Sequence record: MH243438.1
Length of the DNA: 64,000 nt
Direction: 5' to 3' (one strand)
From: Escherichia phage vB_EcoM_NBG1
Under the pieces are notes generated by a model. It ran no database searches. It was given only the letters and a program-made list of their open reading frames with translations, and was not told the origin of the DNA. The first letter of the stretch is position 1. Each line of letters begins with the position of its first letter. This document shows, piece by piece, positions 44,598 through 45,053 of this stretch. Both the position numbers and the translations under genes were made by a program.

Positions 44598-45053
44598 TTA
44601 TTTTAGATCTTCGGCCCAATCTAGTTTTAAGGGTTCTTTGTATTCACGGTCGAGAATAACCGGAATAGCTACATCACCACTGAATGATAGTTGGCCAACG
44701 TTATATGATAACGTTATGTGTGGAGTGTAGTCGTCGAAATCATGAGTAGCACCTAAAGCCCGTGCATACTGATGACGACATCTAAGATATTCAGAATCAA
44801 GAACTAAAACCAGTACAGATCCGTCGTCAGTTTTCCATACCTCAAAGTGTCCTGATTCGGCAACAGAATAACTACCACTAGATGTAGTATATGGTATGTT
44901 TACACGTGAATAACAAATTGTTGAATGAAGCTTTTCACGTGGTACTGGATTAGGAATTCTTAATTTACGCTGGAGGTCTTCCAGCGCATCAAGTGTTAAT
45001 TCTGAAAACTTAGCTGCGACGTAGAGGCCTTGTGAAAAGTCCTCAAATTTCAT
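44598..45053 (-). CDS. 57B: 57B-like 2H phosphoesterase (Acb1-type cyclic-nucleotide phosphodiesterase candidate)
   Basis: 151 aa with two H-x-T motifs (HSTICYS, HITLSY); position as T4 57B. Confidence 0.65.

Follow-up and report, generated by a model that had tools for sequence, protein, structure and literature searches.

The gene 57B orthologue of Escherichia phage vB_EcoM_NBG1 is a predicted anti-CBASS phosphodiesterase of the Acb1 family

Activity-guided fractionation led to the identification of gene 57B of bacteriophage T4 as Acb1 (Hobbs et al., Nature 2022, PMC9117128). The substrates of Acb1 are rings of two or three nucleotides, at least one of them adenosine, such as 3'3'-cGAMP, cUA or cAAA, while cGG and cA4 are not accepted; for the T4 enzyme and nine other family members, cyclic di- and trinucleotides that contain adenosine have been shown to be cleaved without a metal (PMC9117128). 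Acb1 prevents activation of the effectors Cap5, Cap4 and CapV, and CBASS operons restrict T4 that lacks acb1 (PMC9117128). The catalytic tetrad of T4 Acb1, of the form HxT/HxT, consists of H44, T46, H113 and T115; residues Y12, W74, F107 and W147 stack on the bases, E141 contacts adenine N6, and a C-terminal lid formed by residues 145-152 closes over the ligand (PMC9117128). Broad specificity has a known cost, as overexpressed Acb1 can activate Panoptes type I. Type II Panoptes restricts Acb1-encoding BASEL phages, and escape from it occurs through mutations in acb1.

We analyzed a stretch of 64,000 nucleotides from Escherichia phage vB_EcoM_NBG1 (sequence record MH243438.1), called the window below. 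On its minus strand, an open reading frame at 44598..45053, with an ATG start and a TAA stop, encodes a predicted 2H phosphodiesterase of 151 amino acids, here named acb1 as the gene 57B orthologue. The open reading frame listing and the raw sequence agree exactly on the boundaries 44598-45053, and the listing contains no overlapping rival frame of at least 40 amino acids on the plus strand opposite the gene. The two motifs from which the first-pass annotation had recognized a 2H phosphoesterase are both found in the protein, HSTICYS (residues 43-49) and HITLSY (residues 112-117), giving the HxT motifs H43-S-T45 and H112-I-T114. By itself, such a pair of HxT/S motifs is weak evidence for identity. 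The composition of the protein leads one to expect 0.72 such motifs, for a Poisson probability of about 0.16 of finding two or more, and two of the 60 open reading frames of 100-200 amino acids in the window contain two of them. The motif pair is therefore insufficient alone, and the identification is carried by homology.

Homology to Acb1 extends over the full length of the family profile. Pfam model PF23474 (Anti-CBASS protein Acb1), whose cut-off is 27 bits, matches the window protein with 197.9 bits and E = 8.5e-59 over profile positions 1-144 of 144, and PHROG 755 matches with E = 1.3e-65; no NCBIfam model matches. Against T4 Acb1 (NP_049750.1), 130 of the 151 residues are identical (86.1%) in a full-length alignment with no internal gap, the window protein lacking a single residue at its N-terminus and carrying 21 substitutions. 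The best match among solved structures is Acb1 from Erwinia phage FBB1 (PDB 7T26/7T27, E = 6.9e-59). These results uphold the earlier assignment of the gene as an Acb1 homologue at the T4 57B position, and the open reading frame is clearly, by sequence, the orthologue of T4 gene 57B. A tblastn search with the window protein finds homologues in 1471 phage records, mostly from T4-like phages of Escherichia, Klebsiella, Shigella, Acinetobacter, Vibrio, Aeromonas and others. Proteins 100% identical to it occur in Mosigvirus APCEc01 (YP_009225110.1) and in vB_EcoM_LNA2, and the surrounding 1.3 kb region is 99% identical to APCEc01, with identities of about 98.5-98.8% to many further Mosigvirus genomes. 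The gene is thus a known one, of an ordinary kind among T4-like phages. Those supplements of Hobbs et al. that are searchable as text make no mention of APCEc01, RB69 or Mosigvirus.

Conservation is complete at the positions with catalytic or ligand-contacting roles in T4 Acb1. Pairwise alignment places the catalytic tetrad of the window protein at H43, T45, H112 and T114, the base-stacking residues at Y11, W73, F106 and W146 (the last being the tryptophan of the C-terminal lid), and the glutamate that reads adenine N6 at E140, all identical to T4. All nine of the catalytic or ligand-contacting residues of T4 Acb1 are therefore conserved, and the 21 substitutions all lie elsewhere. The C-terminal lid, at approximately residues 144-151, reads LDWAEDLK, as compared with LDWADDLK in T4, a single conservative change from D to E. 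An alignment of ten homologues, T4 Acb1 among them, with identities as low as 31%, likewise bore out the expectation that the catalytic histidines would be conserved: H43 and H112 are invariant, as are T45, T114 and Y11, and E140 is nearly so. Sequences in this alignment include those of T4, FBB1, Serratia phage Muldoon, Acinetobacter phage Acj9, Aeromonas phage 50AhydR13PP, Vibrio phage D482, Cronobacter phage JC03, Klebsiella phage Roth41 and Burkholderia phage BcepSauron.

The FBB1 enzyme, with crystal structures of the apo form (7T26) and of the form with 3'3'-cGAMP (7T27), a 1.1 A structure among them, shares 62.9% identity with the window protein over 140 residues, with a single one-residue gap. 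Its catalytic motifs are identical to those of the window protein; at two of the stacking positions, the residues in FBB1 are F and Y, as compared with W73 and F106 in the window protein, which agrees there with T4. This level of identity to the 7T26 crystal structure argues strongly that the window protein adopts the compact 2H phosphoesterase fold. A prediction by AlphaFold2 from the single sequence returned an uninformative model, with a pLDDT of 33.8 and a pTM of 0.27, so that the fold assignment rests on the identity to 7T26. More distant relatives, namely other viral 2H phosphodiesterases such as PDE-9 (PDB 9Q2G) and the LigT or 2'-5' RNA ligase superfamily, have a pair of HxT/S motifs and the 2H fold predicted for the window protein, but their sequence similarity to it is marginal (E = 0.0056 to 9Q2G and E = 0.018 to Pfam 2_5_RNA_ligase2). 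As a separate observation, residues ~498-583, in the C-terminal part of the portal protein of cyanophage Pam3 (PDB 8HDS), match the window Acb1 weakly, with E = 0.023. The aligned HxT motifs there, HVTIAYS and HISLS, hint that this portal protein may carry a fused 2H-like domain, although at this E-value the match may be due to chance.

Taken by orthology, the mechanism would be that of a small, single-domain 2H phosphodiesterase, and we hold it to be very highly probable that the window gene is the Mosigvirus orthologue of T4 Acb1 and acts in this way. The aromatic residues Y11, W73, F106 and W146 would stack upon the bases of the cyclic nucleotide and E140 would read adenine N6, and the C-terminal lid would close to cover the ligand. 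With the cyclic nucleotide bent, the 2'-OH of adenosine would attack the neighboring 3'-5' phosphodiester, and H43, T45, H112 and T114 would then break the 3'-5' bond on the 3' side of adenosine through acid-base catalysis that requires no metal. The reaction would proceed through an intermediate with a 2',3'-cyclic phosphate and end in a linear product bearing a 3'-phosphate, so that the second messenger would be gone before nucleases, phospholipases and other CBASS effectors could kill the infected cell. From features observed directly, namely the open reading frame, its homology, the conservation of its residues, and its synteny, we infer the activity of the enzyme, its range of substrates, the timing of its expression and its in vivo anti-CBASS effect.

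Other functions for the gene may be considered, beginning with the one that public annotation proposes. PHROG 755 is described as "RNA ligase", RefSeq places the same label on both the identical APCEc01 protein and T4 57B, and Pfam model 2_5_RNA_ligase2 (PF13563) gives a match with E = 0.018, from which one might suppose an RNA ligase or RNA-repair enzyme resembling the LigT-like 2'-5' RNA ligases. That Pfam match, however, covers only residues 77-131 and, at 15.5 bits, lies far under the 27-bit cut-off, and the label is best understood as a misnomer at the level of the superfamily, reflecting common 2H ancestry. The T4 orthologue is a cyclic-oligonucleotide phosphodiesterase by both biochemistry and genetics, and the Acb1 crystal structure has a closed pocket of a size for di- or trinucleotides (PMC9117128). 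An RNA ligase or repair function is accordingly judged extremely improbable. We give just as little credence to the idea that the protein degrades the cyclic mononucleotides of Pycsar, cCMP and cUMP, whether in addition or instead. The first-pass annotation had named Pycsar beside CBASS as a candidate target, and this portion of its reading is not supported. Acb1 acts specifically on CBASS signals, and the anti-Pycsar enzyme is Apyc1, whose metallo-beta-lactamase fold is homologous to Acb1 neither in structure nor in mechanism (PMC9117128). Wild-type Acb1 was tested in an effector assay against cUMP-dependent activation of PycTIR, and the authors' conclusion is that Acb1 and Apyc1 each serve against one class of defense system (PMC9117128). 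The window protein matches Acb1 only, with no match to the metallo-beta-lactamase family in Pfam or PDB, and its sequence does not contain the Zn-binding HxHxDH motif of Apyc1. Nothing from our analyses points toward Pycsar; the sole ground for such a role is that both classes of enzyme appear in one paper.

The remaining explanation is a variation on the same identity, in which the protein is an Acb1 orthologue whose substrate preference has shifted, or whose activity has been lowered, by its 21 differences from T4 Acb1. One form this might take is an enzyme that spares, or cleaves more slowly, the Panoptes decoys 2'3'-c-di-AMP and cA3 while cleavage of cGAMP is kept. Selection of this kind does exist, since Panoptes types I and II can be triggered by Acb1, and related 2H phosphodiesterases within the same structural group differ in their use of 2'3'-c-di-AMP, with the enzyme core setting specificity (10.1101/2025.08.21.671373). 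Were this the case, a retuned enzyme would let the Mosigvirus lineage evade CBASS without tripping decoy-guard systems. The known catalytic and ligand-contacting residues are all unchanged, however, and the lid differs by the D-to-E replacement alone. The example of a specificity-shifted enzyme, PDE-9 (PDB 9Q2G), is itself a weak match to the window protein, with E = 0.0056, and has its lid at the N-terminus instead of the C-terminus (10.1101/2025.08.21.671373). At 86% identity, the default expectation is unchanged specificity. A shift of preference or a loss of activity in general is thus considered very unlikely, and we see a similarly slight chance that decoy sparing in particular has evolved. 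The reading we favor remains that of an Acb1 orthologue with the specificity described for T4.

The genomic setting of acb1 reproduces that of T4. The order of genes in the window, ipI-57B-57A-1-3-2-4-53-5, is the same as in T4; genes 4, 2, 3, 1 (dNMP kinase), 57A, 57B and ipI lie on the minus strand, and genes 53 and 5 diverge on the plus strand, again as in T4. The immediate upstream neighbor, at 45053..45283 on the minus strand, is the orthologue of gene 57A, a tail-fiber assembly chaperone (Pfam GP57, E = 5.9e-23; PHROG 1002). The TAA stop of 57A and the ATG start of acb1 share a single base (TAATG), as against an overlap of 4 bases between the two genes in T4. This one-base overlap suggests that 57A and acb1 are co-transcribed and translationally coupled, and acb1 is probably co-transcribed with gene 1 as well as 57A. 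Gene 57A adjoins 57B not only in T4 but also in Acj9 and in Aeromonas and Vibrio phages.

The downstream neighbor, at 44233..44520 on the minus strand, is the orthologue of ipI, encoding internal protein I (Pfam IPI_T4, E = 1.3e-50), and is 88% identical to T4 IPI; acb1 thus lies between 57A and ipI, the arrangement found in T4. The first-pass annotation placed both neighbors upstream, which is correct for 57A, whereas ipI is downstream in the direction of transcription. T4 IPI inhibits the GmrSD restriction enzyme (as cited in PMC9117128), and the adjacency of ipI and acb1 in T4 has already been described as a small anti-defense cluster (Hobbs et al., PMC9117128). The proposal that this stretch concentrates anti-defense functions therefore stands for the ipI-acb1 pair but does not extend further: 57A encodes a tail-fiber chaperone, the small genes beyond ipI belong to PHROGs without assigned function, and ipI is the sole other anti-defense gene adjoining acb1.

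Several candidate signals for expression of this unit are conserved with T4. The sequence TATAAATA, a T4 late-promoter consensus, occurs inside gene 1 at 45638..45645 on the minus strand, 355 bases upstream of the start of 57A, and T4 gene 1 has the same sequence at the homologous aligned position. Its consensus and its conservation mark it as a putative late promoter of 57A-acb1. Upstream of gene 1, at 46051..46059 on the minus strand, is an extended -10-like element, TGTTATAAT, which alignment shows to be invariant between the window and T4, and which may serve as an early or middle promoter of a unit comprising gene 1, 57A and acb1. A late promoter and an upstream promoter in these positions would fit the time course in T4, in which Acb1 activity appears about 15 min into infection (PMC9117128). 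Over the whole window, the frequency of TATAAATA is not above chance. Consensus scans found 11 sigma-70 promoter-like sites, against 11.1 expected from shuffled sequence, and 4 terminator-like sites, against 1.7 +/- 1.3. Because these scans overall are at chance levels, the promoter sites are candidates only, and such weight as individual sites may have comes only from their conservation with T4.

The spacer between acb1 and ipI contains a 12-bp hairpin, 3' of the acb1 stop, at 44549..44575 on the minus strand (-18.3 kcal/mol, z = -4.2). The corresponding spacer in T4 has a 13-bp hairpin in the same place with another sequence, so that structure is kept while sequence has changed. A role as 3' end stabilizer or as attenuator is a candidate for this hairpin; a classical intrinsic terminator was ruled out, as the element is without a U-tract. 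The promoter scan also returned a sigma-70-like site in the spacer, TTTACA-17-TACTAT, at 44583..44555 on the minus strand, a putative promoter for ipI that overlaps the hairpin. Both of its hexamers, TTTACA and TACTAT, are conserved in T4.

A second gene of predicted anti-CBASS function is found elsewhere in the window. At 30229-30495 on the minus strand, a protein of 88 amino acids is a homologue of the sponge Acb2 (T4 Vs.4), with 65.5% identity to T4 Vs.4 and a match to the Pfam model Acb2_Tad1_hairpin with E = 4.4e-18. With homologues of both Acb1 and Acb2, the window encodes the same dual anti-CBASS kit as T4. The phage is accordingly predicted to resist many CBASS systems and, by the same content, is also predicted to be a potential trigger of Panoptes-type defenses that sense through decoys. 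Acb1 and Acb2 content is for these reasons relevant to the choice of phages for use against hosts with known defense repertoires.

Public annotation does not reflect this function. Among the public records listed for the identical or orthologous gene, no label refers to Acb1 or to anti-CBASS activity; the labels are "RNA ligase" in RefSeq (APCEc01 NC_029091 and T4 NC_000866, with many others) and in records derived from PHROG, and "hypothetical protein" in GenBank submissions. There is, then, a systematic annotation lag for acb1 in public records, and these two labels hide an anti-defense function. Acb1 has been a textbook anti-CBASS enzyme since 2022, with a Pfam family and crystal structures available, and the present identification has little significance beyond correct annotation.

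A few further observations concern the surroundings of the locus. A tblastn search of the whole window with T4 proteins found no homologue of IPII or IPIII at E <= 1e-3, in keeping with the fact that T4-like phages are known to vary in their sets of internal proteins; homologues of denV, e, regB and tk.4 were all detected in the window by tblastn with T4 proteins. The tRNA locus holds no more than two genes, for tRNA-Arg(tct) at 42572-42648 and tRNA-Met(cat) at 42655-42728 on the minus strand, where the same locus in T4 has eight tRNAs together with segB, rnaC and rnaD. Searches with Rfam found no RNA resembling rnaC or rnaD at the window tRNA locus. The mechanically called open reading frame at 42209-42601 overlaps tRNA-Arg, and its PHROG match starts at residue 17, suggesting that the true start of this gene is probably internal.
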